Positions 3,156-17,547 of a stretch of 23,064 nt of DNA are shown in pieces. A program made the translations under genes and the position numbers. The DNA is taken from assembly GCA_029858565.1 (NCBI GenBank), contig JAOUEV010000054.1:1-23064 (forward strand), given 5' to 3'. This DNA is from Nitrospirota bacterium (lineage in GTDB: Bacteria; Nitrospirota; UBA9217). Under the pieces are notes generated by a model that was not told where the DNA came from, searched no databases, and was given only the letters and a program-made list of their open reading frames with translations. The first letter of the stretch is position 1. Every line of letters starts with the position of its first letter.

Positions 3156-3797
3156 CTACGTATTAAGCGCTGAACTGTTGCACTGCGAACTTTCCTGCCT
3201 ATAGTATCCGCCTGACGCGCAGGGAACGCACAGGACCTTTCCTTTCCGGCAGACCTCTCTTCCGTCCTGGACGTGTTCACCGCAGGAGTCGCACCGCACC
3301 CGGCGCAGGGGCCGGCCCGGCATGTCCTCGGGCGCAAGGGCAACCGTCACTGCCATGACAGCGAACAACTCTTCGTCGGCCATGACCTTGTACGCCTCGG
3401 TCTGTCCGGCGTACTTGTTCTCCCTGTCCGGAAAGAGTTCCTTCGCCTTCCGGCGGGAGTCTTCGCGCGCAAGGACCCTGACCGCCTTCCGCGTTTTCAG
3501 GTTCAGAAACGTCGCGGCCATCTTCCCGTAATCCAGGAACTTCATGGTCCGGTGCCCGAGGCTGCATCCGGTCACGGACTGTATCGCATCAGCAGCGCAC
3601 CGGTCCATCTCTACAAAGACTATGATGTTCTTCCGGTCTCTGCCCTTCGGCTCACGGATGCCGATTTCCCGGAGGCCGAGTATCGACATCCGGACGCCGA
3701 GCACCTGACCGGGGCAGAGATGACCGTGGATCCTGACGGATTCAGCGAGGAGCTGTTCGAAATCCGAAGGTGACGGCGCCGTCGATTGCATGGTCAT
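3156..3797 (-). CDS. fmdE: FmdE-family protein with C-terminal CxxC...CxxC zinc finger
   Basis: HGHLCPGQVLG, RCAADAIQSVTGC, DYGKMAATF, CDSCGE...CVPC. Confidence 0.88.
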   Translation of the reverse strand: MTMQSTAPSPSDFEQLLAESVRIHGHLCPGQVLGVRMSILGLREIGIREPKGRDRKNIIVFVEMDRCAADAIQSVTGCSLGHRTMKFLDYGKMAATFLNLKTRKAVRVLAREDSRRKAKELFPDRENKYAGQTEAYKVMADEELFAVMAVTVALAPEDMPGRPLRRVRCDSCGEHVQDGREVCRKGKVLCVPCASGGYYRQESSQCNSSALNT

Positions 3798-3932: not shown

Positions 3933-4709
3933 TCAAGAGGCGCTGAATTCTGCCACAATAGCCTCTGCGTAATGGGCGCGTTCGCATTCCGGGCAGAGGC
4001 CGCCTTGTTTCGTACGCGGCTGCTCGCTGTTGCGCGACGCCACGTGGTCGAGAAACTGCTTTGTTGCGTAGGGGGTTCCGCAGTTCCCGCACCGGACAAG
4101 CGGGAACCTGCCGATCAGGTTGTTCTTCAGGAAAATGGTGCGCTCGCCGCCTTTGTCCTCCAGCCGGACCGCGCCGGTGGGGCAGACGTTCGCGCAGGCG
4201 CCGCACCCGACGCAGGCCTCCGAGAGCTTGCCGAACTCCGCCGTGACCCGCCGCTTCTGCCCCCTGCCGGCGAAGCTGATCGCCGCAACGCCGATCTTGT
4301 CCCTGCAGGCACGCACGCAGAGGCCGCAGCGGACGCAGTCGTCGCTCTCCGCCGCGCGGAACCGCGAGGTCTCGACGCCGTAGCGCTTCGCCATTTCGCG
4401 GAGCCGGGACGAATCCGGCGTCCTGCCGAGCAGGAGTTCGAAGATGATCCTGCGCGACGCCGCCACCAGGGGCGTCTCCGTTTCCACCGAAAGCCCCTCG
4501 GAAACAGCAAGCGTGCACGAGGTGACGAGCGAACGGCGGAGCTGGGGGCTTTCCGCCTCCACCACGCACAGCCTGCACGCGCCGTAGGGGCCGAGTCCCT
4601 CATGAAAGCAGAGCGTCGGGATGTCGATGCCTTCGCGCCGCGCCACTGCCAGCACGGTCATGGATTCATCCGCCGTAACGGTTTTTCCGTTCACTTTGAT
4701 CGTCGCCAT
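3933..4709 (-). CDS. NuoG/HydA N-terminal-like FeS subunit ([2Fe-2S] + 2x[4Fe-4S]), no catalytic domain
   Basis: IPTLC..GACRLC..TSC; CVRCGLCVRAC; CVGCGACANVCP; extra CGNC..CPEC; no H-cluster or Mo-binding domain. Confidence 0.88.
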   Translation of the reverse strand: MATIKVNGKTVTADESMTVLAVARREGIDIPTLCFHEGLGPYGACRLCVVEAESPQLRRSLVTSCTLAVSEGLSVETETPLVAASRRIIFELLLGRTPDSSRLREMAKRYGVETSRFRAAESDDCVRCGLCVRACRDKIGVAAISFAGRGQKRRVTAEFGKLSEACVGCGACANVCPTGAVRLEDKGGERTIFLKNNLIGRFPLVRCGNCGTPYATKQFLDHVASRNSEQPRTKQGGLCPECERAHYAEAIVAEFSAS

Positions 4710-4712
4710 GGT

Positions 4713-6509
4713 TCACGCCTTTTGTATGGATCCGAATTTGCAGGTATCGAAGCAGATCCCGCACTTGATGCACAGCCCCTGATCGATGGCATGGGGCTTC
4801 TTCTTCTCCCCCGAGATGGCCTTCTGCGGGCAGGCGAGGGCGCAGGCGGTGCAGCCGGTGCATTTCGCAGGATCGATGGAGAACCTGATCAGGGCCCTGC
4901 AGACGCCGGCGGGGCATTTTTTGTCCCTGATATGCGCGTCGTATTCATGCCGGAAATACCGGAGCGTCGAGAGGACCGGGTTGGGCACCGTTTTTCCCAG
5001 GCCGCAGAGCGACGCTTCCTTGACCACCTGGCAAAGCTCCTGCAGCGTGTCGAGGTGCTGCTCGGTCCCCCTGCCCGCGGTGATGTCGTCCAGGAGGCCC
5101 ACCAGCGCCCGCGTCCCTTCCCGGCAGGGCGTGCACTGGCCGCAGGACTCGTCCAGGCAGAAGGACACGAAGAACTTCGCCACATCCACCATGCAGGTGT
5201 CCTCGTCCATGACCACCATGCCGCCGGAGCCCATGATCGAGCCGAGCGCCGTGAGGTTCTCGTAGTCCACGGGAACGTCGATATGCTCCCAGGGAATGCA
5301 GCCGCCCGAGGGGCCGCCGGTCTGGACGGCCTTGTATTTTTTGTTCTTCGGAATGCCGCCGCCGATGTCGTAAATGATCTTGCGGAGCGGTATGCCCATG
5401 GGCACTTCCACGAGGCCGGTGTTGTTGATCTTGCCCACGAGCGAGAAGATCTTGGTGCCCTTGGATTTTTCCGTGCCCATGGACGCGAACCAGCGCGCCC
5501 CGTTGGTCATGATCTTCGGGACCGTGGCCCAGGTTTCCACGTTGTTGATGTTCGTCGGCATTCCCCAGAGCCCCTTGTTCACGGGAAACGGCGGCTTGGG
5601 CCGCGGCTCGCCGATCTGGTCCTCCAGCGAGGCGATCAGCGCCGTTTCCTCGCCGCAGACGAAGGCGCCCGCGCCGAGCTTCACCTGGATGTCGAAATCC
5701 ATGCCGCTCGCCGCGATGTTCCTGCCGAGCCACCCCCGCTCCCGCGCCTGCTTGATGGCGTGCCGCAGCCGCTCCACGGCAAGGGGGTATTCCGCCCTGA
5801 TATACACAAAGCCCTCGGCCGAGCCGATGGCGTAGGCGCCGATGATCATCCCCTCGATGACCGCATGGGGGTCCCCTTCGATGATCGCCCGGTCCATGAA
5901 AGCGCCGGGGTCGCCCTCGTCGCCGTTGCAGATGACGTATTTCCGTTCGCCCGGCGACCTCCGGCAGATCTCCCATTTCATGGCGGTCGCGAACCCGGCG
6001 CCGCCTCTGCCCCGCAGCCCGGAGCTTTTGATCTCCTTGATGACCTCGTCGGGCATGAGCGCCGTGAGCACCCGTTCCGCGGCCCGGTACCCCCCGGCGG
6101 CAATGTAGGAATTTATGTCTTCCGGATCGATGTTCCCGCAGTTTGCCAGAACGATTTTATTCTGCCCCCCATGGAACGACGCATACTCGGGTCCGGCCTT
6201 CCACGAGTCGATAGGCGCGCCGCCGATGATATGTTCATCGATGATCCGGTCCGCCATTTCAGGCTTCACGAACTGATAAGTGGTCGTCACGCCGTTGATG
6301 ATGACGTCGACGAGGACGTCCTTGGCGCAGAACCCCCGGCAGCCCACACGATGCGCGCCGCACCGCTTTTCCACGGTGCCGGAGACGGGACGGCGCGCGA
6401 ATCCTTCTTGAAAGGCGGCGAGGACCTTTTCTCCGCCCGTGGCGATGCCCCCGGTGCCCATGCAGACCTTGACCGTGATGTTTCCGTCCTGTGCGCCTCG
6501 TCTGCCCAC
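4713..6509 (-). CDS. nuoF: NuoF/HydB-like FMN- and NAD(P)H-binding subunit, long form with N-terminal thioredoxin-like and C-terminal 2x[4Fe-4S] domains
   Basis: SGLRGRGGAGF, CNGDEGDPGAFMDR, GAGAFVCGEETAL, GGPSGG, ESCGQCTPCREG, SLCGLG, two CxxCxxCxxxC motifs; GTG start. Confidence 0.93.
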   Translation of the reverse strand: MGRRGAQDGNITVKVCMGTGGIATGGEKVLAAFQEGFARRPVSGTVEKRCGAHRVGCRGFCAKDVLVDVIINGVTTTYQFVKPEMADRIIDEHIIGGAPIDSWKAGPEYASFHGGQNKIVLANCGNIDPEDINSYIAAGGYRAAERVLTALMPDEVIKEIKSSGLRGRGGAGFATAMKWEICRRSPGERKYVICNGDEGDPGAFMDRAIIEGDPHAVIEGMIIGAYAIGSAEGFVYIRAEYPLAVERLRHAIKQARERGWLGRNIAASGMDFDIQVKLGAGAFVCGEETALIASLEDQIGEPRPKPPFPVNKGLWGMPTNINNVETWATVPKIMTNGARWFASMGTEKSKGTKIFSLVGKINNTGLVEVPMGIPLRKIIYDIGGGIPKNKKYKAVQTGGPSGGCIPWEHIDVPVDYENLTALGSIMGSGGMVVMDEDTCMVDVAKFFVSFCLDESCGQCTPCREGTRALVGLLDDITAGRGTEQHLDTLQELCQVVKEASLCGLGKTVPNPVLSTLRYFRHEYDAHIRDKKCPAGVCRALIRFSIDPAKCTGCTACALACPQKAISGEKKKPHAIDQGLCIKCGICFDTCKFGSIQKA

Positions 6510-6511
6510 CG

Positions 6512-6973
6512 TTACCCTTCCTTCTCGATCTTTTTTACGATATCCGTCGCCTTCTTCGTCGTGACGTTGCCGTGCGTATCCTTGTCAACGACCATCACCG
6601 GCGCGAGGCTGCAGGCCCCGATGCAGCGGACCGCGTCCAGGGTATAGCGCATGTCCTTTGTGGTTTCTCCCTCTTCCACGTCCAGTTTTCGTTTGAGTTC
6701 GTCGAGTATGCGCTGGGACCCTTTCACATGGCATGCCGTTCCGAGGCATACCTGGATCTGGTGTTTCCCTTTCGGGGTCAGGCTGAAGAGATGGTAAAAG
6801 GTGGCGATGCTGTAGAGCCTCGTAATCGGGACGCCGGTTTTTTTTGCAAGATACATCAGGACGTCCTCGGGCAGATAATTATACCGGGACTGTATCTCAT
6901 GAAGCACCGAGATCAGGTTTCCCCGTACCTCGGGGTAGCGGGAAAGAACGTCGTCGACGGGCTGCATTTCCAT
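6512..6973 (-). CDS. nuoE: NuoE/HydC-like [2Fe-2S] subunit
   Basis: ATFYHLF, VCLGTACHVKG, RCIGACSLAP; AAAGGAG RBS. Confidence 0.93.
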   Translation of the reverse strand: MEMQPVDDVLSRYPEVRGNLISVLHEIQSRYNYLPEDVLMYLAKKTGVPITRLYSIATFYHLFSLTPKGKHQIQVCLGTACHVKGSQRILDELKRKLDVEEGETTKDMRYTLDAVRCIGACSLAPVMVVDKDTHGNVTTKKATDIVKKIEKEG

Positions 6974-6982
6974 GGCGCTCCT

Positions 6983-7411
6983 TTATATTCCCGACAAATA
7001 GTCCTTCAGGTGGTGAATCTCCGACTTCAGGTTTCCCACCTGCGTCTTTACCACGTCCCGGATCGAGAGCATGCCCGCGACCTTTCCCTGCTCCATCACC
7101 GGCATGTGGCGAATGCGCTTTTCGATCATGACGCTCATGACCGCGCAGAGGTCCTCCTCGGGCTCGGCCACGATCAGGTCAGCGGACATGGCCTGCTCCA
7201 GGAGGACCGTGCTGAATTGCTCCGGCCACCTGCGGTACGCCCGGAGGACGTCCCGCTCGGTGAAAATCCCGGCGGTCCGGGAATTCTTCCTGACCAGCAC
7301 GGCGCTGACATTCCGCTCGGTCATTGTCGCAATGGCCTTGTCCACGGTATCGCTCGCATCGAGGAAAATGGTCTCCCGTCCCTTTTCATCCAGCAGATCC
7401 TTTACCGTCAT
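6983..7411 (-). CDS. Stand-alone CBS-pair domain protein
   Basis: GIFTERDVLR, RIRHMPV, GMLSIRDVVK; GAGGAG RBS. Confidence 0.92.
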   Translation of the reverse strand: MTVKDLLDEKGRETIFLDASDTVDKAIATMTERNVSAVLVRKNSRTAGIFTERDVLRAYRRWPEQFSTVLLEQAMSADLIVAEPEEDLCAVMSVMIEKRIRHMPVMEQGKVAGMLSIRDVVKTQVGNLKSEIHHLKDYLSGI

Positions 7412-7450
7412 ACGAACGCTCCTCTTCCCCCTGCCGCGGTTTTCTCCGCC

Positions 7451-7753
7451 CTATGCCGGCTGCTTCCCCGATGCCCGGTCCAGCACGCTGCCGATCTTCC
7501 GGATTTTTCCGTCGAGTTCCAGAAACTGCGCCGCGGCATGCCTGCTGGTACCGCGGGAGCGCACCTCGCGGCGGGTCATTTCTTCCAGCAGCCGGCGCGC
7601 TTCGGACAAAATAGCGTCCATTTCCCGGACCTGGCCGGCCTTCGAGGACCCCGCAGCGGACATCCGGACCGCTTCCCGGGAAATGTCGTCCAGGAGAGGC
7701 GAAAGATCATCGAAACTTCTCGCCGCCTGCATCGTTTTCAGAAGGTCCGTCAT
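7451..7753 (-). CDS. Hypothetical alpha-helical protein (100 aa) in the operon
   Basis: GGGAGG RBS; fills the gap between the FeS subunit and CBS genes in operon orientation; no recognised motif. Confidence 0.65.
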   Translation of the reverse strand: MTDLLKTMQAARSFDDLSPLLDDISREAVRMSAAGSSKAGQVREMDAILSEARRLLEEMTRREVRSRGTSRHAAAQFLELDGKIRKIGSVLDRASGKQPA

Positions 7754-7782
7754 GAGTCATCCTCCCGGACATCCCCGACAGC

Positions 7783-8295
7783 CTAATATGCCGCCCCGAA
7801 CTCGGCGATTTCCCGCGCAAACCGCTCCCGCTTCAGCGCCGATGCCTCGGCCGCGGACACCCAGCGCAGCGCGTGGGCCGTGCATTTGGTCACGCAGGCC
7901 GGTTTCAGCCCTTTGTCGACGCGGTCCTTGCAGTAGTCGCATTTGATCACCCTGCCCGTCTCGGGGTTCCACTGCGGCACGCCCCAGGGGCAGGCGGTGA
8001 TGCAGGACTTGCACCCCACGCAGAGCGGCTGCTCCACGAACACGATCCCGTCCTTCGTCCGTTTCTGCATGGCGCCGGTGGGGCAGGCGGAAACGCACCA
8101 GGGCTTCTCGCAGTGGAAGCAGGGCATGAAGACGAAATGCATGCGCGGGATCCCCCTGATCATCTTCGGGCCCACGGGCATGATCCTGCAGAACCGCGGG
8201 CCCACGGGCACGTTGTTCTTCGTTTTGCAGTGCACCTCGCAGGCATAGCACCCGATGCACCGTTTCTGGTCTTGATGGATGTAATAGATGCTCAT
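7783..8295 (-). CDS. Four-cluster FeS beta subunit of a DMSO-reductase-family enzyme (PsrB/PhsB-like)
   Basis: CIGCYACEVHC, CFHCEKPWCVSACP, CVGCKSCITACP, KCDYC..PACVTKC; AAGGAGG RBS. Confidence 0.93.
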   Translation of the reverse strand: MSIYYIHQDQKRCIGCYACEVHCKTKNNVPVGPRFCRIMPVGPKMIRGIPRMHFVFMPCFHCEKPWCVSACPTGAMQKRTKDGIVFVEQPLCVGCKSCITACPWGVPQWNPETGRVIKCDYCKDRVDKGLKPACVTKCTAHALRWVSAAEASALKRERFAREIAEFGAAY

Positions 8296-8307
8296 CGCGC
8301 TCCCTCC

Positions 8308-10392
8308 TTACGCCTTGGCAACGCTCACGAAACATTCGAGGTAGGCGACGCCGCCGCCCACGGGATCCACGGTCTCGAGCAGGCCGATTTCGAATTTCGT
8401 GTCGCTCAGGCCTTTCTGATAGGACCGGGTCTTCAGCGGGATATCGCTCCCGAACCCGTGCACCATGAAGACCGCCTCGGGATGGATGTGGGGCGTCACC
8501 TTGGCCTTGATCTTCCCGCGATAGCCGCCGGACGAGACCTCGACCGTGTCGCCGTCCTTGACGCCCAGGGCCTGCGCTTCCGCATCGTTGATCCAGAGCG
8601 CGTTCTCCGGCATCAGCTCGTTGAGGTAGATGTTGTTCTGGGACTGGGCATGGGTATGGACGGCGCTCCTGCCGAACAGCAGCCGGAACGACCCCTTGTC
8701 CGGCTTTTTGGGCGGCGTGTATGCCTTGAAGGACGGGAACCCGGCCTTCGCCAGGTCCTCGGAAACAAGCTCGATCTTTCCCGAAGGCGTCTTGAATTTC
8801 AGCGCGTTCCGGTCCTGCAGAATGGCCGCTTTGGCGAGGCCCACCGATCCTTTCGCGGAAAAATCCTCGATTTTCACGCCGGTGTTTTCCAGCTGGTAGT
8901 TCCAGATGTCCTCGATGCTCTTGTAAGGGAAGTATTCCCCCGCGCCCATCCGGTGGACGATGCTCGTGAAGATCTCCCAGGCGGGCTTGCTGTCGTACCT
9001 CGGCGGAACGGCCTGCCGCCGCATGACGAAGGAAGGCTTCTGCCCCTTTGCCGTGCCGATGATGTTCGACCGCTCCAGGTAGGTCGCTTCGGGAAGAATC
9101 ACGTCTGCGAACCACCCGGTCTGGCTGTAGTTGACGTCGATGGAAACCAGCAGGTCGAGGCCGGCCAGGACCTTCTTCTGCGCCTCGGGATCGGGCAACG
9201 ACGCGATCGGGTCGTAGCGGTAGGCGAAGTAGGCCTTGATGGGATAGGGTTCGCCGGTTTTGATCGCCTTGTACAGGTTCACCACGTGTCCCGTGCCGAA
9301 GGGTTTGTTCTTCATTGCCGCGTCGGCGATCTTGTCCTTGGGCTCGGGAATCTTCGCTCCCAGGGACTGCAGCGGTTTCCTGCCTGCGTCCGACGGCCCC
9401 TTGGCGATGATCATGCCTCCCTTGGTCTCGATGTTTCCCATCAGCGCGTTCAGGATATAGAGCGTCCTGCTGGCGTAGAAGGAGTCCACATACCGGGCCA
9501 GCATCCACCCGGGATGGAAGATCACCTTCGGCTTTGCGCTGCTGAAGTCGCGGGCCAGGCTGACGATCTCCTGGGCGGGGATACCGGTCTCCTGTTCGGC
9601 CCACTCCGGCGTATAGGGCGCGACGAAGTTTTCGAGCTCCGTGATGCCGCTGACGTATTTATTCACGAAATCGGGGTCGTAGAGCCGTTCCTGCAGCACC
9701 GTCCGGATGAGCGCGAGGTTGAGCGCGTAATCCGTTCCCGGCCGGATCATGAGGAACCGGTCCGCTTTCGACGCCGTGACCGTTGCCCGGGTGTCGATAT
9801 AGGTCAGCTTCGCGCCGCGCTCCATGCCGTCAAGGATATTGTTCACCTCCTTGACCTGCAGCGATTCGAAGACGTTCCGTCCGTACAGGACGATGTGGCC
9901 CGCGTTGGCGAAGTCATAAGCCAGCTCCGCGCGGCTGTTGAACCCGAAGAGGCTCCTGCACGCCATGTCCACGTTCTTGCCGCAGGTGTCGTCATGGTTG
10001 AAATAGTTGGCCGAGCCCAGCGCCTTCAGGAAGCTCGTGGTCAGGTCCGTGAACGGGCCGCTCCGGTCGGAAAGCGCGATGGCCCTGCCGCCGTGCTTCG
10101 CAGCGACCTCCTTCAGCTTTCCCGTGATATACTCGAGCGCTTCGTCCCAGGTCGCCCGTTTCCACTTCCCCGAGCCCCGCTCGCCGTCCCTGATCATGGG
10201 GAACTGGGGCCGCTCGGCGTCGTATTCGAACGCAAGGCCGGCCGAGCCTTTTGCGCAAAGACTCCCTTCCAGGCCCGGCTCGTGGGGGTTCCCTTCGATC
10301 CATTTCACCGCGCCGTCTTCCGTCTCCACGCGGATGGAGCAGCGGACCGCGCACATGCCGCACATGCTGTATACCGACGATGTTTCTCCCAT
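8308..10392 (-). CDS. Molybdopterin oxidoreductase catalytic subunit, PsrA/PhsA (polysulfide/thiosulfate reductase)-like, without Tat signal
   Basis: CGMCAVRC..LCAKG FS0 motif within the first residues; NHDDTC at the Cys-ligand position; IRPGTD, ADVILP..YLER, C-terminal HPEAVFMVHGFG; start at ATG 10392 after GGAGG. Confidence 0.9.
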   Translation of the reverse strand: MGETSSVYSMCGMCAVRCSIRVETEDGAVKWIEGNPHEPGLEGSLCAKGSAGLAFEYDAERPQFPMIRDGERGSGKWKRATWDEALEYITGKLKEVAAKHGGRAIALSDRSGPFTDLTTSFLKALGSANYFNHDDTCGKNVDMACRSLFGFNSRAELAYDFANAGHIVLYGRNVFESLQVKEVNNILDGMERGAKLTYIDTRATVTASKADRFLMIRPGTDYALNLALIRTVLQERLYDPDFVNKYVSGITELENFVAPYTPEWAEQETGIPAQEIVSLARDFSSAKPKVIFHPGWMLARYVDSFYASRTLYILNALMGNIETKGGMIIAKGPSDAGRKPLQSLGAKIPEPKDKIADAAMKNKPFGTGHVVNLYKAIKTGEPYPIKAYFAYRYDPIASLPDPEAQKKVLAGLDLLVSIDVNYSQTGWFADVILPEATYLERSNIIGTAKGQKPSFVMRRQAVPPRYDSKPAWEIFTSIVHRMGAGEYFPYKSIEDIWNYQLENTGVKIEDFSAKGSVGLAKAAILQDRNALKFKTPSGKIELVSEDLAKAGFPSFKAYTPPKKPDKGSFRLLFGRSAVHTHAQSQNNIYLNELMPENALWINDAEAQALGVKDGDTVEVSSGGYRGKIKAKVTPHIHPEAVFMVHGFGSDIPLKTRSYQKGLSDTKFEIGLLETVDPVGGGVAYLECFVSVAKA

Positions 10393-10420
10393 GGTTTCCT
10401 CCCGCATGGTCTCTTGCGAA

Positions 10421-10457
10421 GCTCCCCTCCCCCGGGCCGCAGCAGGGGGAGGGGGGC
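10421..10457. repeat. GC-rich intergenic hairpin without U-tract
   Basis: GCTCCCCTCCCCC (10421-10433) pairs with GGGGGAGGGGGGC (10445-10457). Confidence 0.65.
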
Positions 10458-10465
10458 GCTCCGGA

Positions 10466-10855
10466 TCAGTACACTCCCAGCAGGTTCAGGGCGAGAATGA
10501 CCAGCCCCGCCACGGCGACCCGCTTGACCGTCGTCGGGCTTATCCGCTTGGCGATCTGCGGGGCGATGTAGCCGCCGAGGATCGCCGCGGGAAACATGAT
10601 GAGGAAAAAGACCAGGTCGAAATTTCCGAACTGGTAGTGCCGCATCGTCCCCATGAGCGTGTTGAAGAAGATCGCGAGCAGCGAACTCCCGACCACCACG
10701 TACATGGGAAGTCCCAGCCCCACGGTCATGAGCGGCACCATGAACGGCCCGCCGCCGAACCCGAACATGGAAGAAACCACGGCGATGAGAAATCCGCCGA
10801 TGCATCCCAGAACAATATTGATTTTGAACTCGTGACCCCAGAAATGTACGATCAT
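10466..10855 (-). CDS. TauE/SafE-family transporter half-module (about 4 TM)
   Basis: SSMFGFGGGPFMVP, VVGSSL, ILGGYIAP; GGAGG RBS. Confidence 0.85.
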   Translation of the reverse strand: MIVHFWGHEFKINIVLGCIGGFLIAVVSSMFGFGGGPFMVPLMTVGLGLPMYVVVGSSLLAIFFNTLMGTMRHYQFGNFDLVFFLIMFPAAILGGYIAPQIAKRISPTTVKRVAVAGLVILALNLLGVY

Positions 10856-10890
10856 GGCATGCCTCCCTGCCTTCCGGTTGTAGGATTGCG

Positions 10891-12171
10891 TTAATTGCCT
10901 TTCTTCGCCTTTGCCGCGTCTTCGGCCTGCTTCTTGAACTGCTTCATGATGTCCTGCTCTTTCTTGTTCTTTTCGAGGTACCCCGGCGTCGTTTGCCAGA
11001 ACATCAGTCCCGCGAGCACGAGCAGGATCCAGCCGAAGACGAACTTGAACTGCGCCAGGGTGATCATCTCGGTCAGCTTCGGACCGATGAATCCGCCGGC
11101 CACCATGGCCAGGCCGATGGCAACGCCCAGCTTCCAGCTGATGAACTTGATCTTCGAGTAATTATAGATGCCGCTGCCCTGGGAAAAGAGCACCGTGGGC
11201 ATCACCGTCCCGGCGACCACGGTATGCGGCAGGGGCCAGATGGAAACGAGCAGGGGATTCATGATGAACCCGCCGCCTGCGCCCATCAGCACGCCGAAAA
11301 TCGCGATGGCGAGCGTCAGGAAGAACGGTCCGAACAGATTGACGCTCGTTCCCCCGTTGCTCAGGTAGACGAGGGGAAAGGCGATCCTGTTTTCGAACGT
11401 CACGGGCTGGCTTTTCGCGGTCTTGTCCACGGCCGCGACGATATTGTATTTGCCAGGCGCAAGGCCGGCGCGGATTTTTATTTCCGCCCGGTACGTCCCG
11501 TTGGGATGCATTTCCACGTCCGCGCTCATGACCTTGTCCACCGACCGGAAGCGGGCTTTCACGAGCTGCATGGACCGCTTTGCGTTTTCCTTCTCATCCA
11601 TGGAGGAAAGCGGGGCGCCGCGGGACCCGATGATGCTGCCCATGAGCGTTGCCTGGTACCGATCGACCGCCTTGGCGGCCGGCGCCGAGTAGACCGCGTC
11701 CGCGCCCACGTCCTTAAGCGCCTTGGAGAACGACCATTTGCCGCCTTCCTGCTTGATCTTGACGAGCGTTTCCTTGTGCTCCTTCGGCACGAACATCTTG
11801 TAATAGGCGGGCATGTCATGGGTCATATAGAGAATATAGGGCCGTTTTCCCGTATCTTTGTCCACGTCGGCATCGAACCGCGAGGCCCGCACCGTCTTTT
11901 CCGCCCACACTTCGAGGTAAACCGGCTTGCCCACCGGCGCGGTCCCCGTCACAACGATCGTTCCGCCGTTGTCTAAGGCGGTCTTGTCGATCTGCACTGT
12001 CGGCGCCGCTGCCGGCGGCTGGCTTTTTCCGGCCCCCTGCGCTGGCGATTGCACTCCGGCCTTTGGCGCAGGCGCATGCTGCGCCGGCTTTTCGGCAAAG
12101 GCGCCGTTTTGCCAAAGGATAACGAAAGCAGCGGTCATTGCAACAGCAAGAGACAACCAAGAACGTTTCAT
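10891..12171 (-). CDS. Signal peptide + large extracytoplasmic domain fused to a TauE/SafE half-module
   Basis: N-terminal signal ending AFA, Pro/Ala linker, soluble domain, then FGVLMGAGGGFIMNP, VAGTV, GGFIGPKLT; AAGGAGG RBS. Confidence 0.85.
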   Translation of the reverse strand: MKRSWLSLAVAMTAAFVILWQNGAFAEKPAQHAPAPKAGVQSPAQGAGKSQPPAAAPTVQIDKTALDNGGTIVVTGTAPVGKPVYLEVWAEKTVRASRFDADVDKDTGKRPYILYMTHDMPAYYKMFVPKEHKETLVKIKQEGGKWSFSKALKDVGADAVYSAPAAKAVDRYQATLMGSIIGSRGAPLSSMDEKENAKRSMQLVKARFRSVDKVMSADVEMHPNGTYRAEIKIRAGLAPGKYNIVAAVDKTAKSQPVTFENRIAFPLVYLSNGGTSVNLFGPFFLTLAIAIFGVLMGAGGGFIMNPLLVSIWPLPHTVVAGTVMPTVLFSQGSGIYNYSKIKFISWKLGVAIGLAMVAGGFIGPKLTEMITLAQFKFVFGWILLVLAGLMFWQTTPGYLEKNKKEQDIMKQFKKQAEDAAKAKKGN

Positions 12172-12253: not shown

Positions 12254-12270
12254 TGCAAAGGTTTTGCCGA
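12254..12270 (-). promoter_or_regulatory. Sigma-54 -24/-12 promoter
   Basis: Minus strand TCGGCAAAACCTTTGCA = GG-N10-GC with TTGCA; about 80 bp upstream of 12171, next to a GAFTGA activator gene. Confidence 0.85.
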
Positions 12271-12388: not shown

Positions 12389-13747
12389 TCATTCGATTTG
12401 ATATTCCTTTATTTTCTTCCAGAGCACTTTCCTGGTAATGCCGAGGCGTTTTGCCGCGTCCATTTTTTTGCCTCCTGTTTCCTTCAAAGCCGCGATGATT
12501 TTCTGTTTCTCGAAGCACTTGATGCTGGAGTCGAGAGAAAGGTCCTCGGAAACGCACGGCATGGCCGCGGCCCCTCCCGCGACTTCCTCGGGAAGATGCT
12601 CGATGTTGATGACGCCGTTCTTCGCAAGGATAACCGCCCGCTCGATCGCGTGTTTCAGTTCCCGCACATTGCCGGAGTACCGGTGCGCAAGCAGTGCGTT
12701 GTACGCGGACACGGACAGGGACAGTCCGGCCTTGTCGTATTTCGTCCTGAAATTGGCAAGAAAATGATCGATCAGACAGGGGATGTCCTCCCCCCGGTCC
12801 TGCAGCGGCGGCAGCACAATGGGAACCACGTTGATCCGGTAGTAGAGATCTTCCCGGAATGTTCCTGCCGCGATGCGCTCCTTGAGGTTCTTGCTCGTGG
12901 CGAACAGGCCGCGCACATCCGCCTTGAGCGGAACGTTGCTTCCCAGGCGGGTTATGATGCCGTCCTCCAGCACCCGCAGCAGTTTCGGCTGGAGCGACAG
13001 AGGAATATCTCCGATTTCATCGAAAAAGATCGTCCCGCCGCCGGCATACTCGAACTTGCCCTTCCGTGCCTCCACGGCGCCCGTGAAAGCGCCCTTTTCA
13101 TAGCCGAAGAGTTCGGACTCGAAGAGGCTTTCCGGGATGGCCGCGCAGTTGATCTTGATGAACGGTTTCCCGGCACGGGGACTCAGCCGGTGAAGAGCGT
13201 TTGCCGCCAGTTCCTTGCCGGTGCCGCTCTCGCCCTGAATGAGCACGGGCACGTCCGTTCCCGCGACGGACCCAATGCGGCCGAACACGTCCTTCATCGC
13301 GGCGCTGATGCCGATGAAGTTCTCGAATTCCGTTTTCTCCCGCAGCGTCTCTTTCAGGAAGACTACTTCTTCTTCGAGCTTCCGGTAGTTGAAAAACCGT
13401 TCCACGGAGATCAGGAGCTCTTCATTGGAAAAGGGCTTGGCGAGATAATCGAACGCCCCGTTCTTGATGGCCTGGACCGCGGTCTTTATCTCCGCATGGC
13501 CGGTAATCATGATGACGCCGGGCGGGGGGGACCCGGCCCGCGCCTTTTCAAGGACCGCGAACCCGTCGGCGTGCGGAAGCTTCAGGTCCGTAATGACCAG
13601 ATCATACGCCGCGGTTTCCAGGGCATGCAGGCCCTCGCGGCCGTCGGCGCGCGCGTCGACCCCGTATCCCTGATAAGCGAGGAAATGGCTCATCCCCAGC
13701 CGCATGGTGGGATCATCTTCCACGATCAGAACGCGTTTTTTCGTCAT
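12389..13747 (-). CDS. Sigma-54-dependent NtrC-family response regulator (REC-AAA+-Fis HTH)
   Basis: VEDD, TDLKLP, GESGTGKE, ESELFGYEKGAFTGA, FFDEIG, FREDLYYRINV, GNVREL, AAKRLGITRKVLWKK. Confidence 0.96.
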   Translation of the reverse strand: MTKKRVLIVEDDPTMRLGMSHFLAYQGYGVDARADGREGLHALETAAYDLVITDLKLPHADGFAVLEKARAGSPPPGVIMITGHAEIKTAVQAIKNGAFDYLAKPFSNEELLISVERFFNYRKLEEEVVFLKETLREKTEFENFIGISAAMKDVFGRIGSVAGTDVPVLIQGESGTGKELAANALHRLSPRAGKPFIKINCAAIPESLFESELFGYEKGAFTGAVEARKGKFEYAGGGTIFFDEIGDIPLSLQPKLLRVLEDGIITRLGSNVPLKADVRGLFATSKNLKERIAAGTFREDLYYRINVVPIVLPPLQDRGEDIPCLIDHFLANFRTKYDKAGLSLSVSAYNALLAHRYSGNVRELKHAIERAVILAKNGVINIEHLPEEVAGGAAAMPCVSEDLSLDSSIKCFEKQKIIAALKETGGKKMDAAKRLGITRKVLWKKIKEYQIE

Positions 13748-15375
13748 AATAGCCGCAGATGCACGGTAAAGGTCGTCCCCGCTTCCGAGGTTTCCGCCGT
13801 GATCTCTCCTTTATGCTGCTCAATGATCGCCTTGCTCACCGAGAGTCCCAGGCCGGTCCCTTCGCCCGAGTCCTTGGTGGTGAAGAACGGGTCGAAGATC
13901 CGCGGCAGGACCTCGCGAGGGATCCCCTTGCCCGTGTCGGAGAGGGACACCCGGCACGTATTCCCCTCACAAGCCGTCCGAACGGTCAATATACCGCCGC
14001 CGTCCATGGCCTGGACCGCGTTGATGACCAGATTCAGAAAGACCTGTTCCAGTTTGCTTGCGTCAGCCGTAACTTCAGGCATGTCCGCGGCAAATTGCTC
14101 CTTGATCGAGATCCCTTTCTTCGCAACAGTGTATTCCGAAAGCCGCAGCACGTTGCTCAAAATAGCATGGATCGATGTCCGGGACATGCGCAGCTCCGAA
14201 TGCTTGGAATAATCGAGCAGCTGTTTTACGATGCGCTGGATCCTGTCGAAGCCGGACCTGATGACCTCGATATGCTGCCGCCGGGTGTCTTCGTCCATCT
14301 TCGTTTCGATCAGGTTGTTGAAGCACAGGCTGATCCCGCCCAGCGGATTGTTGATCTCATGGGCGACGCCCGCGGCTATCTGACCGAGCGCCGAGAGCCT
14401 GTCGAGCCGGAATTTCTCCCGGTTCGCCTCTTCAAGCTCCTGCAGGTTGTTCTTCAGGTCGCCGACCATCTGGTTGAAGACCTCGACCAGTTCCCCCACC
14501 TCGTCGCCGCACGACTCCCGGTAGATAATGCACTTCTTGCAATCACAGATCTTTTCGGCGATACCGCCCTGTTCGCAGCCGAAGCATTTAGTGCCCGGGA
14601 TCGTCCAGCACCGCGTTTTTCCGTATGCCGGGCAGTCCTGCCGGGCGCAGCGCAGGACTTCCCAGCAGTTCAGCAGGTGGTCATTGGGGACCGTTATATC
14701 GAGGTTCCCGGCCTGCACTTCCTCCATTTTCTCCTTCAGTTTTTTCATGGGGATGGTAAGCTGCCTCGCCAGGACCGTCGCGCTCCCGATGCCGACGACG
14801 ATGACAAACCCCGAAATGAGAAAGATGTACCGTTCAAGGTCCTGCATGTTCCTGGTTACGATCCCGTCCGTGCTGTCACGGGAAAAACCGGCGATGACTA
14901 TGCCGAGGACCTCATACCCGATCTGAACGGGAACGATGATCTTCTTGATCCCGTCCTGCTGGCCGTCGTCGATATGGGTTTCCCGTTCCGAAAGAACGCG
15001 CGTTGCCTGGTTTTGCAAGGCAGGCGAAATTGCCCTGCCGAGAAAGGTCCGCGCCGTATGGGCCACGATGCGCTTGTCCCTGTCGGCAACGAGTGCATAG
15101 CTGAGCCCCGACAGCTGCGCGGACGTCTGCACCAGTTCGTCGAGCTTGAGCGGATCCATCACAATAAGGGGCACCACCGCGTCGTTGGCGAGGTTTTTCG
15201 CGATGAAAAGCTGCTTATTCTCCAGTTCGGCCCTCAGAACGCCCTTCTGGTGGTTCACGATAAGCAGGTTCAGCGTCACCGTCATGATGATGATCAGGAA
15301 AATGACGCCGAGGGAAAATTTCCCGAAGATGCTCAGTTTTCGGAATATGGCGGATACCTGCTGTTTCATGATCAA
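13744..15375 (-). CDS. Membrane sensor histidine kinase with Cys-rich two-CW insertion in HAMP
   Basis: Two TMs; GVAHEINNPL, QVFLNLVINA, DTGKGI, FDPFFTTK, GTGLGL; 4-bp overlaps with both neighbours. Confidence 0.94.
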   Translation of the reverse strand: MIMKQQVSAIFRKLSIFGKFSLGVIFLIIIMTVTLNLLIVNHQKGVLRAELENKQLFIAKNLANDAVVPLIVMDPLKLDELVQTSAQLSGLSYALVADRDKRIVAHTARTFLGRAISPALQNQATRVLSERETHIDDGQQDGIKKIIVPVQIGYEVLGIVIAGFSRDSTDGIVTRNMQDLERYIFLISGFVIVVGIGSATVLARQLTIPMKKLKEKMEEVQAGNLDITVPNDHLLNCWEVLRCARQDCPAYGKTRCWTIPGTKCFGCEQGGIAEKICDCKKCIIYRESCGDEVGELVEVFNQMVGDLKNNLQELEEANREKFRLDRLSALGQIAAGVAHEINNPLGGISLCFNNLIETKMDEDTRRQHIEVIRSGFDRIQRIVKQLLDYSKHSELRMSRTSIHAILSNVLRLSEYTVAKKGISIKEQFAADMPEVTADASKLEQVFLNLVINAVQAMDGGGILTVRTACEGNTCRVSLSDTGKGIPREVLPRIFDPFFTTKDSGEGTGLGLSVSKAIIEQHKGEITAETSEAGTTFTVHLRLL

Positions 15376-17045
15376 TATTGCCGGAGCCCCTCGAACTCAG
15401 CGTCACTGCTTGCCCGAAATCCCCGGATTTTAGCGGCCCCCAGGACGTTCCGGTCGTTCAAATCAACGAGCAGCCGCGCGACCTTTTTCACCAAAGAGGG
15501 ATTGGTCTTGCCGCAGAGCGAAAAAGGCCAGTTCGGGAGCGACTGGGTGCGGGTCAGAACCCGGATCTGCCGCATATCGATCTCGCCCTTCAGCACTTCG
15601 AGCGCCGATTCCCTGACGAAACCCGCGTCCGCCTGGCCCTTATAAACGCCGAGGATGACGTTTTCCTGCCTCTTCGCCTCCCGGACCATCAAGTCCCGCT
15701 CAACGGAGATTCCCCTCTGTTGCAAGAAGAGCTTCTGCGAAAGGTACCCCCCCGCGGATTTCGCAGAGACGACCAGGACGTTTTTCCCCCGCAGGTCCTC
15801 GACGGTCCTGATCTTGCTGTCGGCCCGCGTGATGATAACCCCGCGAAACCTGTCGCCTGCCGCTCCCTCGCCGGCAGTCGCCCCTTCCTCCCCGATCGTC
15901 GTCACGAGCGGCGTGAGACGCACGGTCCGGTCGATCAGCGAAAACACGTAGGGATTCTGGTAGGAAAAGTTCACGTTTCCCTTCTTTACCACCTCCACGA
16001 ATTCCTCGAAGTCCCGGGGGATGACGAGCTTGAATTCATACCCGGTTTTCCGAGAAAGGTACCGCATGAGCGGATCATACCGTTCGAAGAGGGTAATGGC
16101 GGAATACAAGGGGAGGATGGCGACTTTGATCGTATTCGGTCCGTACTCGATGTAGTTCTTCCCCGAGAGGTTCTTGATCATGACCCTGACGGCGTCGAAG
16201 TCCCTGTCCTGGGCAGGCGTAAAACGCCCGATCTGCCCGTCTTTCGTCCGTTCCCGGTCCGGCGCGTCCGGGGGGGCAACGAGACCGCGAACGATCAATT
16301 CGCGCGTCGCGGGACTCAGGTCGCGGGACGCGCACAGCACGAGCCGGGAAATTTCCTCGGATTTTTTCAAGACGGTCAGGCCGTCCGCCAGATATTTCTC
16401 CGCCACCAGCTGGCTCAAAGCGCCGGCGTCATGATCGCCGATCAGCACGGAAAGCGCCACGCTGTCTTCCTGCTGAAAGTGATCGACCGCGGCGAAGTCC
16501 TCGGCGCCGATGCCGACGTCCTTGAGCATTGCAAGAGGCGCCAGGTGGCCGAAGGTGGAACGCTGATGGCCGAAGGCGATGCGCTTCCCCTTCAGCTCAA
16601 CGATTTTTTCCATGCCCCTGTCCTGCTTGACGATGAGCACGCTGCGGGACAGCTCGCCCTCCTGTTTCGCCGTTTTGACGAGAGGGATGACCTTCTCTCC
16701 GTAGCGGGCCCGCGCCTCGCAATAGGTGGAGGGATCGAGGCAGGCGATGTGGATCTGGCCGTTCCCGATCTCACGAATGATGGTATCGTAGTCCTTGGCG
16801 ATTTTAATCGTAACGCGTCTCTTTAGCGTATGCTCGAGGGAATACTTCAGCGGCAGCAATCGCCCGTACAGGCTGGCGGCGCTTTCTGCGGGAATGATGG
16901 ATATCCGTAACGCCGGCCCAGCTGAGATGCCGGACAGGTCCTGCTGATCATTCTTCGGAGGAGGGAGAGAAGGTGCGGCAGTATTCTGGCAGGAACAAGA
17001 AAGCAACGCGCCGAACAGAACAAAGGATATGAGTTTTTTTCGCAT
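15372..17045 (-). CDS. Lipoprotein with two tandem PhnD-like (phosphate/phosphonate-type) substrate-binding domains
   Basis: Lipobox LLSC; duplicated motifs LKGKRIAFGHQRSTFGHLAP / LRGKNVLVVSAKSAGGYLSQ and VALSVLIGDHDAG / VILGVYKGQADAG. Confidence 0.88.
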   Translation of the reverse strand: MRKKLISFVLFGALLSCSCQNTAAPSLPPPKNDQQDLSGISAGPALRISIIPAESAASLYGRLLPLKYSLEHTLKRRVTIKIAKDYDTIIREIGNGQIHIACLDPSTYCEARARYGEKVIPLVKTAKQEGELSRSVLIVKQDRGMEKIVELKGKRIAFGHQRSTFGHLAPLAMLKDVGIGAEDFAAVDHFQQEDSVALSVLIGDHDAGALSQLVAEKYLADGLTVLKKSEEISRLVLCASRDLSPATRELIVRGLVAPPDAPDRERTKDGQIGRFTPAQDRDFDAVRVMIKNLSGKNYIEYGPNTIKVAILPLYSAITLFERYDPLMRYLSRKTGYEFKLVIPRDFEEFVEVVKKGNVNFSYQNPYVFSLIDRTVRLTPLVTTIGEEGATAGEGAAGDRFRGVIITRADSKIRTVEDLRGKNVLVVSAKSAGGYLSQKLFLQQRGISVERDLMVREAKRQENVILGVYKGQADAGFVRESALEVLKGEIDMRQIRVLTRTQSLPNWPFSLCGKTNPSLVKKVARLLVDLNDRNVLGAAKIRGFRASSDAEFEGLRQY

Positions 17046-17047
17046 AA

Positions 17048-17281
17048 TCAGAAAGAAAAGCGGAGTGTTCGGTTCACTATTGCTGCCGGCTGTTCCCGGA
17101 TATATATTAGCAAGTCAATCCACTGAAATCCATCCTCTTTTTTCGCCGTTTCCCGCAAGGGCGCCATGAGTCTGATGCAGCTCATGCCCCGGACCGCCTC
17201 GGACCTGAATGTATAGTACGCCGCTCCGGCCAGCTTGTGAGCGAGTGCGTTGTGCGCGGCCATGAAGCTGGTCTTCTGCAT
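17048..17281 (-). CDS. Possible small leaderless ORF (77 aa) upstream of the sensor operon
   Basis: ATG 6 nt after an extended -10 TGcTATAAT; stop 2 bp before the next start; no recognised domain. Confidence 0.3.
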   Translation of the reverse strand: MQKTSFMAAHNALAHKLAGAAYYTFRSEAVRGMSCIRLMAPLRETAKKEDGFQWIDLLIYIREQPAAIVNRTLRFSF

Positions 17282-17287
17282 TTTGCG

Positions 17288-17316
17288 ATTATAGCATGCC
17301 CGTGCCTGTTTGTAAC
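17288..17316 (-). promoter_or_regulatory. Sigma-70 extended -10 promoter for the sensor operon
   Basis: Minus strand GTTACA-N17-TATAAT with TGn extension. Confidence 0.55.
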
Positions 17317-17530: not shown

Positions 17531-17547
17531 TTGTTCTTTCGTCGGTC

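Follow-up and report, generated by a model that had tools for sequence, protein, structure and literature searches.

The window analysed here, the whole contig JAOUEV010000054.1 of 23,064 nucleotides, comes from a Nitrospirota genome of 3.9 Mb in 144 contigs and carries a single row of minus-strand genes (positions 12171-3156) in which the two subunits of a Psr/Phs-type molybdenum enzyme, PsrA and PsrB, are encoded together with a three-subunit module of the Bfu family, BfuABC. The best reading of this pairing, to which we give a probability of roughly 0.45, is a soluble PhsAB-BfuABC complex that would reduce imported thiosulfate with NADH and ferredoxin. We infer that the five proteins work in one complex, and likewise the substrate, the direction of the reaction and its ferredoxin dependence or bifurcation. 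The building blocks are published, and only the PsrAB-BfuABC combination appears undescribed: a Psr/Phs-type enzyme joined to BfuABC was found in no paper, judging from search listings and passages.

The row runs TauE-N, TauE-C, PsrA, PsrB, a 100-residue open reading frame (ORF100), a CBS protein, NuoE, NuoF, the 258-residue BfuA and FmdE, with intergenic gaps of 2-73 nucleotides across the operon and 135 nucleotides ahead of FmdE; within it, nuoE, nuoF and bfuA are contiguous, with gaps of 2-3 nucleotides. An initial annotation, made from the sequence alone, had proposed a cytoplasmic Psr/Phs-type enzyme beside a catalytically empty HydABC-like module, and every gene that it named was found on the minus strand where it had placed it (Table 1). 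What it had read from the sequence is confirmed, and its interpretation is supported in part.

The molybdenum (Mo) subunit contains the domains PF04879 (FS0 / Molybdop_Fe4S4, 2e-13), PF00384 (Molybdopterin, 1e-44) and PF01568 (Molydop_binding, 9e-17), and its best match in the PDB is Thermus PsrA (2vpw_A, 1e-123, full length). The database-called start is M6 of a 699-residue ORF, giving a protein of 694 residues whose first FS0 cysteine is residue 11. The maximal ORF begins 15 residues ahead of that cysteine, cannot be extended upstream and contains no RR motif of a twin-arginine translocation (Tat) leader, and alignments begin at residue 36 of the Thermus PsrA precursor and at profile position 36 of NCBIfam PhsA, which bears out the annotated absence of a twin-arginine leader ahead of FS0 cysteines that start at residue 11. 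The absence of a membrane anchor from the operon was likewise borne out, since the NrfD profile had zero matches among the operon ORFs and no PsrC/PhsC/SoeC-type anchor is therefore encoded there; four NrfD genes lie on other contigs of the genome, each beside its own four-cluster iron-sulfur subunit. Because it has neither a Tat leader nor a PhsC/NrfD anchor, the Mo subunit would be cytoplasmic and not quinol-linked.

By profile and structure matches the subunit is of Psr/Phs type and not a formate dehydrogenase. The latter assignment, which would have refuted the initial annotation, was rejected on a score of 254 bits with the formate dehydrogenase alpha profile against 533 bits with PhsA, and on PDB matches to formate dehydrogenases of 1e-47 or weaker against 1e-123 for PsrA. 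The cysteine in the motif NHDDTCGKN aligns to C173 of Thermus PsrA and is a cysteine in 60 of 60 leaderless loci of the census described below. The columns of Thermus PsrA C173, H145 and R332 read C, R and W in all 60 leaderless locus proteins. Among the PhsA equivalogs they hold C, K/K/R and H/H/W, and in other Tat-bearing proteins mostly C, H and R. We take C173 to be the Mo ligand, recalling the roles of all three residues from the structure paper; a literature search on the roles of PsrA Cys173, His145 and Arg332 found nothing.

For its placement we sampled 150 representatives, one per 50%-identity cluster, from a library of 1.84 billion proteins, and added the locus proteins. Two unrooted trees were built, with FastTree (143 rows) and with IQ-TREE under LG+C20 with posterior mean site frequencies (PMSF) and a short search (54 rows); they carried no SoeA, SreA, Wolinella PsrA, TtrA or ArrA references, and the other Tat-bearing clades in them are unnamed. 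The representatives closest to the Mo subunit are leaderless. A leaderless clade takes 73 of the 143 rows (local support 100) and 24 of the 54 (SH-aLRT 100), and comprises all locus proteins plus 13 representatives (9 in the smaller tree), 10 of the 13 being leaderless and 3 having an unclear N-terminus; Tat-bearing members among its 73 rows number zero. This clade is sister to three PhsA equivalogs plus P0131, with a joint support of 98 in both trees. Proteins of Desulfocapsa sulfexigens (P0276) and Thermodesulfovibrio thiophilus fall inside it.

Downstream, the long NuoF shows in translation the GAFM, KIFSL and GGPSGG motifs and the two C-terminal CxxCxxCxxxC motifs for 2x[4Fe-4S] that had been read from the sequence. 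Its layout comprises an N-terminal thioredoxin-like domain, a flavin mononucleotide (FMN)/NAD(H) domain, SLBB, an N3-type [4Fe-4S] site and the C-terminal 2x[4Fe-4S], with Pfam matches to PF01512 (51K-FMN, 2e-46), PF10589 (NADH_4Fe-4S, 1e-33) and two Fer4 domains; SLBB scores 24.1 bits, under the Pfam cut-off of 27. The nine best PDB matches (2.6e-232 to 2.8e-189) are all B subunits of Bfu-family (HydABC-type) complexes, in agreement with the annotated HydB-type family. The best solved relatives are 9bov_B (the first, 2.6e-232), NiFe-HydB 7t2r_B, NfnB 9n5u_B, HydB 7q4v_B and 8a6t_B, and 9mqx_B (8e-196), with alignments over the full length to 9bov_B, 7t2r_B, 9n5u_B, 7q4v_B and 9mqx_B, whereas the non-bifurcating Nqo1 and FdsB match at 1e-121 and below, over the core only. 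The entry 9bov, in which a molybdopterin oxidoreductase of 1178 residues goes with BfuB, is probably one of the formate-dependent Bfu enzymes, among which HylABC-FdhF2 is counted. Compared with 9bov_B and 7t2r_B, the NuoF of the window keeps the C-terminal clusters, the CPxxxC site and the N3-type motif. Within the N-terminal domain the cysteines are C16, C50, C57 and C61; the canonical second cysteine is a glycine, and the nearby Cys50 is conserved in the lineage and in the genome's own paralogs.

The published definition of Bfu comprises a BfuB with 51-kDa FMN, SLBB, NuoF [4Fe-4S] and ferredoxin domains, a NuoE-type BfuC, and a BfuA with 2Fe-2S and 4Fe-4S ferredoxin domains (PMC9304861). By this definition, and judged on domain content, the trio of NuoE, NuoF and 258-residue subunit is BfuABC, which would couple the turnover of NAD(H) and ferredoxin, that is, bifurcate. 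The terms molybdopterin, polysulfide, thiosulfate and Psr are all absent from the main text of PMC9304861; this clade may be listed in its supplements, among the 17 of unknown function.

The subunit that joins the two halves would be BfuA. It has a [2Fe-2S] domain (Fer2_4, 5e-16), two [4Fe-4S] sites (Fer4_7), a C-terminal four-cysteine finger and a terminal helix; residues 66-124 are free of Cys and His, and the reported absence of both an H-cluster and a Mo domain was confirmed. Its best PDB match is WorA (9mqx_A, 3e-50, residues 4-249), with both CxxC pairs of the finger aligned. In an alignment of 13 rows, the 2Fe-2S cysteines, the two 4Fe-4S motifs and three of the four finger cysteines (C207, C239, C242) are invariant, as are 16 cysteines in four motifs of PsrB. 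In the solved WorABCSL complex, WorA has no cluster A3, a Zn finger stands in place of the catalytic domain, and the C-terminal helix recruits the polyferredoxin WorS, clusters S4 and A4 lying within 10.7 Å of each other (PMC12318220). Because BfuA matches WorA over its full length with conserved ligands and no A3, the "catalytically empty" module is, as far as the sequence goes, the known Bfu "plug". The novelty claimed for the locus therefore holds for the PsrAB-BfuABC combination, which is undescribed in searchable papers, and not for the empty HydABC-like module, which corresponds to the BfuABC "plug" (PMC9304861, PMC12318220).

We co-folded BfuA with PsrB, giving each chain as its 13-row alignment, in three runs and with three controls. 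The interface score (ipSAE) was 0.73 in all three runs, and the best control reached 0.45; in calibration, 58 of 80 solved complexes and 2 of 110 mismatched pairs attained the mark. Contacts agreed by at least 86% between runs, with a partner predicted local distance difference test (pLDDT) of at least 83. The predicted interface brings together BfuA residues 134-140 and 169-175 (the 4Fe-4S loops) and 215-255 (finger and helix) with PsrB residues 64-75 and 90-106, so that cluster-binding loops lie on both sides. The co-fold thus makes it plausible that BfuA binds PsrB, and the physical link between the modules suggested in the initial annotation gains support short of proof, as the model may mirror WorA-WorS.

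Using a census of related loci, we identified a general rule to which this pairing belongs. We fetched 80 genome loci with PsrA relatives of 53-85% identity from Nitrospirota, Desulfobacterota, Thermodesulfobacteria and others, in all of which PsrB comes after PsrA; the partner-module count was limited to the 60 loci whose sequence continues for at least 3 kb downstream. In 57 of these 60, an electron module directly follows psrAB, and three loci (L016, L075, L080) have none. The modules are of three types: (i) a Nuo cluster (A, B, C, D, H, I, J, K, L and others) without NuoEFG, in 26 loci; (ii) a GltD/NfnB-like flavoprotein of about 720 residues, in 22 loci, usually with a CBS protein and a BfuA-like subunit of 253 residues, the CBS protein preceding the BfuA-like gene in 9 of them, and the BfuA-like gene being retained in all GltD-type loci with enough sequence except L062; (iii) NuoE, NuoF and a BfuA-like subunit, in 9 loci. 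The order in the window (TauE-N, TauE-C, PsrA, PsrB, CBS, NuoE, BfuB with ferredoxin domain, BfuA) is repeated in L013, L019 and the metagenome contig L098, all with the CBS gene at the equivalent position. The NuoF cores associated with PsrAB are 67-82% identical across phyla, against 61% for the best paralog in this genome. The rule is thus psrAB plus one of three electron modules, and the exact pairing of the window occurs only in the window, L013, L019 and L098. The co-conservation that the initial annotation had put forward as a check stands for this small set; most relatives carry a Nuo or GltD-like module instead.

Several variants of the modules came to light in the same loci. In L020, L021, L039 and L074, NuoF-GltD fusions of about 1011-1052 residues have a GltD/NfnB-like domain where the ferredoxin domain would be, which puts two nicotinamide sites per subunit next to psrAB; L062 (12607-15645) also has a NuoF core fused to a GltD/NfnB-like FAD/NAD(P)H domain, and L059, which is frameshifted, probably belongs to this fusion group. 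A second NuoF-like gene lies about 4.4 kb further on in L020, L021 and L039. Two Desulfobacteraceae loci (L029:13233-14582 and L036:13468-14838) encode a BfuA-like subunit fused to a GcvH (lipoyl) domain and a short NuoF without ferredoxin domain; the GcvH-fused BfuA makes another variant of the soluble module that has not been described. Seven contigs of metagenome-assembled genomes (L005, L006, L007, L009, L011, L018, L046) stop 6-1062 bases past psrA/psrB, where the partner module starts, and a repeat such as nuo or nuoEF paralogs could explain these breaks, as could a partner module that differs between the strains of a population.

Cytoplasmic enzymes of this kind have been met before: cytoplasmic PhsAB-like enzymes are discussed for thiosulfate disproportionation (PMC13490349). 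In Dissulfuribacter thermophilus, a PhsAB-like enzyme without Tat leader and PhsC (DITHS69_2027/2028) is among the proteins most raised during thiosulfate disproportionation, and a TauE protein and a co-occurring membrane protein rise alongside it; the paper leaves the donor of this enzyme open and asks about membrane association and partners (PMC13490349). In D. dissulfuricans, PhsA-1/B-1 (GF1_30490/30500) are numbered just before Nuo proteins GF1_30510/30520, the latter seen only under thiosulfate disproportionation (PMC9751629). Frank et al. (PMC5165239) described PsrAB beside a Nuo cluster without NuoEFG in Thermodesulfovibrio sp. N1 (THER_0567-0582) and proposed a coupling; this is locus L056 of our census, 58% identical and inside the leaderless clade. 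In D. alaskensis G20, mutation of PhsAB causes a mild defect on thiosulfate (PMC4215793).

Set beside the characterised systems, the window shares parts with each. With PhsABC (NF012032, Salmonella type) it has in common the FS0, Molybdopterin and Molydop_binding domains, the Cys ligand, the four-cluster B subunit, a sister-clade position and a basic residue at the H145 column; it differs in having no Tat leader and no PhsC/NrfD anchor, in its score (533 against 694 bits) and in its identity of 33-37%. Thermus PsrABC (2VPW), which we take to be the characterised polysulfide reductase although it was deposited as 'thiosulfate reductase', is the best solved relative and shares the cysteine C173; its PsrA is Tat-exported and sits on a PsrC anchor, and the window has R and W at the H145 and R332 columns. 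WorABCSL (9MQX) shares the BfuABC core, a small BfuA without A3, and the four-cysteine finger and helix that recruit a four-cluster polyferredoxin (PMC12318220), but it combines a tungstopterin WorL with a WorS nanowire and acts on aldehyde, whereas the window has a PsrA with a Mo-bis(pyranopterin guanine dinucleotide) (Mo-bisPGD) cofactor and a single PsrB, probably acts on a sulfur oxyanion, and adds a CBS protein and a transporter. The formate-dependent Bfu enzymes (Fdh-Bfu, PMC9304861), of which this genome has two apparent sets on contigs C41 and C7, also place Mo-bisPGD on BfuBC, with the difference that their Mo domain is of Fdh type and fused to BfuA, while the Mo subunit in the window is separate, of Psr/Phs type and reached via PsrB. 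The cytoplasmic PhsAB-like and PsrAB-Nuo clusters have, like the window, a leaderless A subunit, a B subunit and no C subunit; a role in thiosulfate cleavage has been proposed for them on the strength of proteomics. Where a partner has been noted it is a Nuo cluster without NuoEFG, and the window has BfuABC instead.

The genes upstream point to an oxyanion. A tandem PF12974 substrate-binding protein, a sensor histidine kinase and a sigma-54 regulator precede the operon (12389-17045), as they do psrAB in 8 of the 80 loci; the best PDB matches of the binding protein are PtxB (3e-25), AioX and ArrX. By domain content the set has the layout of AioXSR and ArrXSR, in which the same three kinds of protein occur together and which are said to be arranged X-S-R with a sigma-54 regulator, and the binding protein is a probable oxyanion sensor partner, the X of such a three-component system. 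PF12974 is the proposed periplasmic sensor domain of the tetrathionate kinase TtrS, and a search based on this domain led to the thiosulfate kinase ThsS, beside thiosulfate reductase genes (PMC5408782). Between its HAMP and HisKA domains the histidine kinase (13744-15375) carries an insert of about 55 residues with about 12 Cys, which hints at a metal or redox-sensing element besides the Cache domain and the binding protein encoded separately. A candidate sigma-54 element sits 84-98 nucleotides ahead of the TauE-N start codon (12255-12269); as the pattern has 15 matches in the window against 21.7 expected, not above shuffles, position alone speaks for this suggestive site. A scan of the window for sigma-70 promoters gave 0 promoter-like sites, and terminator-like sites numbered 14 against 10.8 +/- 3.8 in shuffles, none of them in a minus-strand intergenic gap.

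The transporter is encoded in two pieces. The two-gene form recurs in 21 loci without internal stops, as a signal-bearing gene of about 400-440 residues followed about 10-40 nucleotides later by one of about 129 residues, and on this ground we rejected a pseudogene. A model of the extracytoplasmic part of TauE-N shows two beta-sandwiches with a helical insert, followed by transmembrane helices (mean pLDDT 71.9, residues 55-280 mostly above 85); a Foldseek search of this domain against the PDB gave only generic Ig-like/arrestin-like beta-sandwich matches, with a TM-score of at most 0.2.

From these parts a mechanism can be proposed. The tandem PF12974 protein, kinase and sigma-54 regulator would sense thiosulfate outside the cell, and the split TauE/TSUP pair would import it. 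At the leaderless PhsA/PsrA-like Mo (or W) site, thiosulfate would be cleaved reductively to sulfide and sulfite. BfuBC would serve as the NAD(H)- and ferredoxin-reactive flavin core, in which electrons from NADH and reduced ferredoxin are confurcated, and from there they would travel over BfuA clusters A1-A2-A4 and the four PsrB clusters to the Mo site, with BfuA clamping PsrB by its C-terminal Zn finger and helix and so bringing its distal [4Fe-4S] to a PsrB cluster. The sulfite produced could be handed to DsrAB, which the genome encodes. In the Nuo-linked relatives, PsrAB may draw on a quinol- and proton-motive-force-linked supply from menaquinol, and in the GltD-type relatives on an NAD(P)H flavoprotein; the GltD-type partners may run on an NAD(P)H-type donor alone.

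The potentials fit such a scheme. NADH lies at about -280 mV, ferredoxin at about -500 mV and menaquinol at -74 mV. The standard potential (E0') of thiosulfate/(sulfide plus sulfite) is -402 mV, as cited in PMC13490349, close to the -414 mV of H+/H2, the couple served by HydABC confurcation (PMC9304861). The thiosulfate couple thus lies between NADH and ferredoxin, the energetic window where HydABC confurcates. Thiosulfate is the most likely substrate because the leaderless clade is sister to the PhsA equivalogs, and because of the R and W columns, the D. thermophilus proteomics, the PF12974 sensor and an E0' near that of H+/H2. The supply supposed for the Nuo-linked relatives has a counterpart in Salmonella PhsABC, which is reportedly driven in thiosulfate reduction by the proton-motive force. 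The physiological role of PhsABC, as cited in PMC13490349, is thiosulfate reduction from menaquinol.

A number of observations weigh against this reading. The Mo subunit scores 533.4 bits with NCBIfam PhsA (NF012032), under the cut-off of 694 bits, whereas the true PhsA equivalogs P0139, P0159 and P0173, at 33-37% identity, score 998-1058 bits. Exact co-conservation of PsrAB and BfuABC is rare: a BfuB with the C-terminal ferredoxin domain occurs in only 2 of the 9 NuoEF-type genome loci (L013, L019); the nearest PsrA neighbours, L008 and L010 (81-82% identity), are of Nuo type; and no close BfuA (best identity 36-44%) is present in the genomes of the five nearest relatives with contigs that break off 293-1062 bases past psrB. 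A scan from the BfuA side took in 80 metagenome loci, 28 of them with at least 6 kb upstream, and found a PsrA relative in only 2 of the 28, L098 (window type) and L097 (fusion type), the remainder being other Bfu trios with a BfuA identity of at most 46%. PsrB scored 0.45 against an unrelated control chain, and the passing co-fold may stem from likeness to the solved WorA-WorS complex. Membership of the D. thermophilus and D. dissulfuricans proteins in the leaderless clade would follow from the papers' descriptions and not from sequences; neither name is among the 120 listed, mostly unnamed, relatives of the L073 PsrA. Arsenite, arsenate and phosphite are likewise sensed by PF12974 binding proteins. 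By a Nernst estimate for cellular concentrations, with sulfite kept low by Dsr, the thiosulfate couple would rise 100-200 mV above its standard value, so that NADH alone could suffice and confurcation would waste ferredoxin. Finally, the locus is known here from sequence and models.

The same PsrAB-BfuABC complex might instead act on a sulfur substrate of higher potential (polysulfide, persulfide, elemental sulfur or tetrathionate), as a plain sulfur reductase linked to NADH or to NADH plus ferredoxin. We consider this unlikely, although the best solved relative is the Thermus enzyme 2vpw, relatives are annotated as 'thiosulfate reductase/polysulfide reductase chain A', the score stays under the PhsA equivalog cut-off, the PF12974 sensor also suits tetrathionate, and the GltD-like partners of 22 loci resemble NAD(P)H-dependent flavoproteins, presumably comparable to sulfide dehydrogenase/NfnB. 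The R and W at the H145/R332 columns in all 60 leaderless loci, and the position of the clade as sister to the PhsA equivalogs and not to the bulk of the Tat-bearing Psr-like proteins, speak otherwise; a TSUP anion transporter and an oxyanion-type sensor suit a soluble oxyanion better than they do sulfur or polysulfide, and an acceptor of high potential would not explain why BfuB is ferredoxin-reactive or why a Nuo module is there. Rather less probable still is that the enzyme runs oxidatively, as a SoeA-like cytoplasmic sulfite dehydrogenase or by making thiosulfate from sulfide and sulfite, with low-potential electrons going to ferredoxin and NAD+, as they do from aldehydes in WorABCSL; a corollary, to be given the same low credence, is that the Nuo-linked relatives feed menaquinone with proton pumping and that TauE exports sulfate or imports sulfite. 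The sulfate/sulfite couple, at about -516 mV, could reduce both acceptors and with Nuo would mirror the energetics of NADH:quinone, cytoplasmic SoeABC (with an NrfD-type SoeC) is a precedent for this direction, TauE is by name a sulfite exporter family, and the hosts include disproportionators (Dissulfurispiraceae, L019; Desulfocapsa sulfexigens, P0276). Bfu enzymes with very low-potential third substrates, namely aldehyde, CO and pyruvate, also exist (PMC9304861, PMC12318220). Against oxidation count the sister relation to the reductive PhsA, the AprA that the genome has for sulfite oxidation or adenosine 5'-phosphosulfate (APS) reduction, and the finding that the D. thermophilus PhsAB-like proteins reach higher levels with thiosulfate than with sulfite plus H2, a condition under which sulfite was disproportionated too (PMC13490349).

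The two modules could also be unlinked enzymes sharing an operon, with PsrAB running on free ferredoxin or an anchor encoded elsewhere, and NuoE/NuoF/BfuA acting as a separate NADH:ferredoxin oxidoreductase. Partner modules have indeed been swapped often (over the PsrA tree the Bfu label has to change 8 times, and well-supported branches force at least 5 of these changes), the closest relatives do not have this BfuA, the unrelated-chain control still reached 0.45, and the genome has four NrfD genes elsewhere. We nevertheless regard this as improbable: BfuA alone has no catalytic domain, and in WorABCSL such a subunit docks the polyferredoxin (PMC12318220); the BfuA-PsrB co-fold passes its controls, the electron module directly follows psrAB in 57 of 60 loci, GltD-type loci apart from L062 also retain the BfuA-like gene, and each NrfD gene has its own adjacent iron-sulfur subunit. 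Least probable of all, in our view, is an enzyme for a non-sulfur oxyanion (arsenate, selenate/selenite or phosphite) sensed by an AioX/ArrX/PtxB-like protein. The PDB matches of the binding protein, led by PtxB, and the XSR layout with its sigma-54 regulator would accord with it, and ArrA is related to Psr/Phs (NCBIfam match of 1e-38); yet the Mo subunit scores 533 bits for PhsA against 133 for ArrA, the hosts are sulfur-metabolising with Dsr/Apr present, TauE/TSUP is tied by name to sulfur anions, the XSR set stands at only 8 of 80 loci, and the proteomics favour thiosulfate for a cytoplasmic PhsAB-like enzyme (PMC13490349).

Table 1. Positions of the annotated features in the window, with the basis of each assignment.
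Feature	Position	Strand	Basis
Tandem PF12974 (phosphonate-bd) substrate-binding protein, 557 residues	15372..17045	-	Pfam PF12974 1e-104, two stretches
Sensor histidine kinase: sCache_3_2, HAMP, Cys-rich insert, HisKA, HATPase	13744..15375	-	Pfam and translation
Sigma-54-dependent response regulator	12389..13747	-	Pfam Response_reg, Sigma54_activat, HTH_8
Candidate sigma-54 -24/-12 element, cGGCAa-N5-TTGCA	12255..12269	-	Pattern match, 2 mismatches, and sequence reading
TauE/TSUP N half, 426 residues, signal sequence and extracytoplasmic domain of ~280 residues	10891..12171	-	Pfam TauE profile positions 2-114
TauE/TSUP C half, 129 residues	10466..10855	-	Pfam TauE profile positions 126-237
Psr/Phs-type Mo/W-bisPGD catalytic subunit, 694 residues, leaderless	8308..10392 (maximal ORF to 10407, 699 residues)	-	Pfam, NCBIfam, PDB
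PsrB/DmsB-type four-[4Fe-4S] subunit, 170 residues, without signal sequence	7783..8295	-	Pfam Fer4_11, NCBIfam DmsB-like
ORF of 100 residues without family; putative gene	7451..7753	-	ORF only
CBS-pair protein, 142 residues; possible regulatory subunit	6983..7411	-	Pfam CBS, two stretches
BfuC / NuoE-type [2Fe-2S] subunit	6512..6973	-	Pfam 2Fe-2S_thioredx (PF01257) 2e-52; NCBIfam HoxE/NuoE
BfuB / long NuoF, 598 residues	4713..6509	-	Pfam and full-length alignment to solved BfuB chains
BfuA, WorA-like adaptor, 258 residues	3933..4709	-	Pfam Fer2_4 and Fer4; PDB 9mqx_A
FmdE-domain protein with Zn ribbon; probable Mo/W-enzyme accessory	3156..3797	-	Pfam FmdE 9e-35

The host is a sulfate-reducing Nitrospirota bacterium; dsrAB and aprA are present in the same genome, and the Psr/Phs-type A subunit of the window is the only one it has. 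ORF100 (7451-7753) has zero Pfam or NCBIfam matches and zero tblastn matches in the 80 loci or the rest of the genome, and it is missing from the corresponding spot in L013 and L019. Paralogs of FmdE, at 77% and 70% identity, adjoin other Mo enzymes on C122 and C6, and a 69% homolog lies near the L019 locus.

The 3.9-Mb genome holds six NuoEF modules, that of the window and five other sets. Those on C41 (35442-40230) and C7 (6556-11891) are NuoE-NuoF-(NuoG-Mo fusion) sets resembling formate-dehydrogenase-type Bfu enzymes, and further sets lie on C89, C142 and C14. Elsewhere in the window, a minus-strand gene at 285-1505 encodes a protein of 406 residues with a MoCF_biosynth (molybdopterin-binding) domain and a C-terminal Cys cluster, which may be a cofactor-insertion accessory; it has two paralogs (67-72% identity) on C36 and C17 and a 56% homolog near the L019 locus. 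On the plus strand, a second, single-domain PF12974 binding protein (9e-61) and an IS200-like (Y1_Tnp) transposase stand side by side (21277-22176 and 22213-22704), with a G+C content of 47% against about 60% in the operon. The stretch of about 2.5 kb at 17046-19500 has only overlapping ORFs on both strands and zero Pfam families, and a tRNA scan of the window found none.

We would go further, tentatively and with more doubt than likelihood, and see in the window the first member of the Bfu family for inorganic sulfur: a flavin-based confurcating or bifurcating thiosulfate reductase that is one of three interchangeable power supplies for a cytoplasmic PhsAB cassette, its Nuo sisters being proton-motive-force-driven (or proton-pumping) menaquinol:thiosulfate oxidoreductases. 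If so, inorganic sulfur would join the published third substrates of Bfu enzymes, which comprise H2, formate, NADP+, F420, CO, pyruvate, aldehydes, aryl-CoA, H2O2 and quinones, and the WorA-type "plug" would prove to serve generally as an adaptor for the four-cluster subunits of complex iron-sulfur molybdoenzymes (CISM). The Nuo-linked sisters would then be the molecular form of the reverse electron transport that has long been postulated in thiosulfate disproportionation, and the modules would provide genetic markers for how sulfur-cycling lineages pay for low-potential thiosulfate cleavage. The census of psrAB with its three modules (57 of 60) offers a testable answer to the question of the electron donor of cytoplasmic PhsAB-like enzymes; of the three solutions, the NADH/ferredoxin (Bfu) one is seen most clearly in the window, whose pairing suggests the electron source of a widespread cytoplasmic sulfur enzyme.

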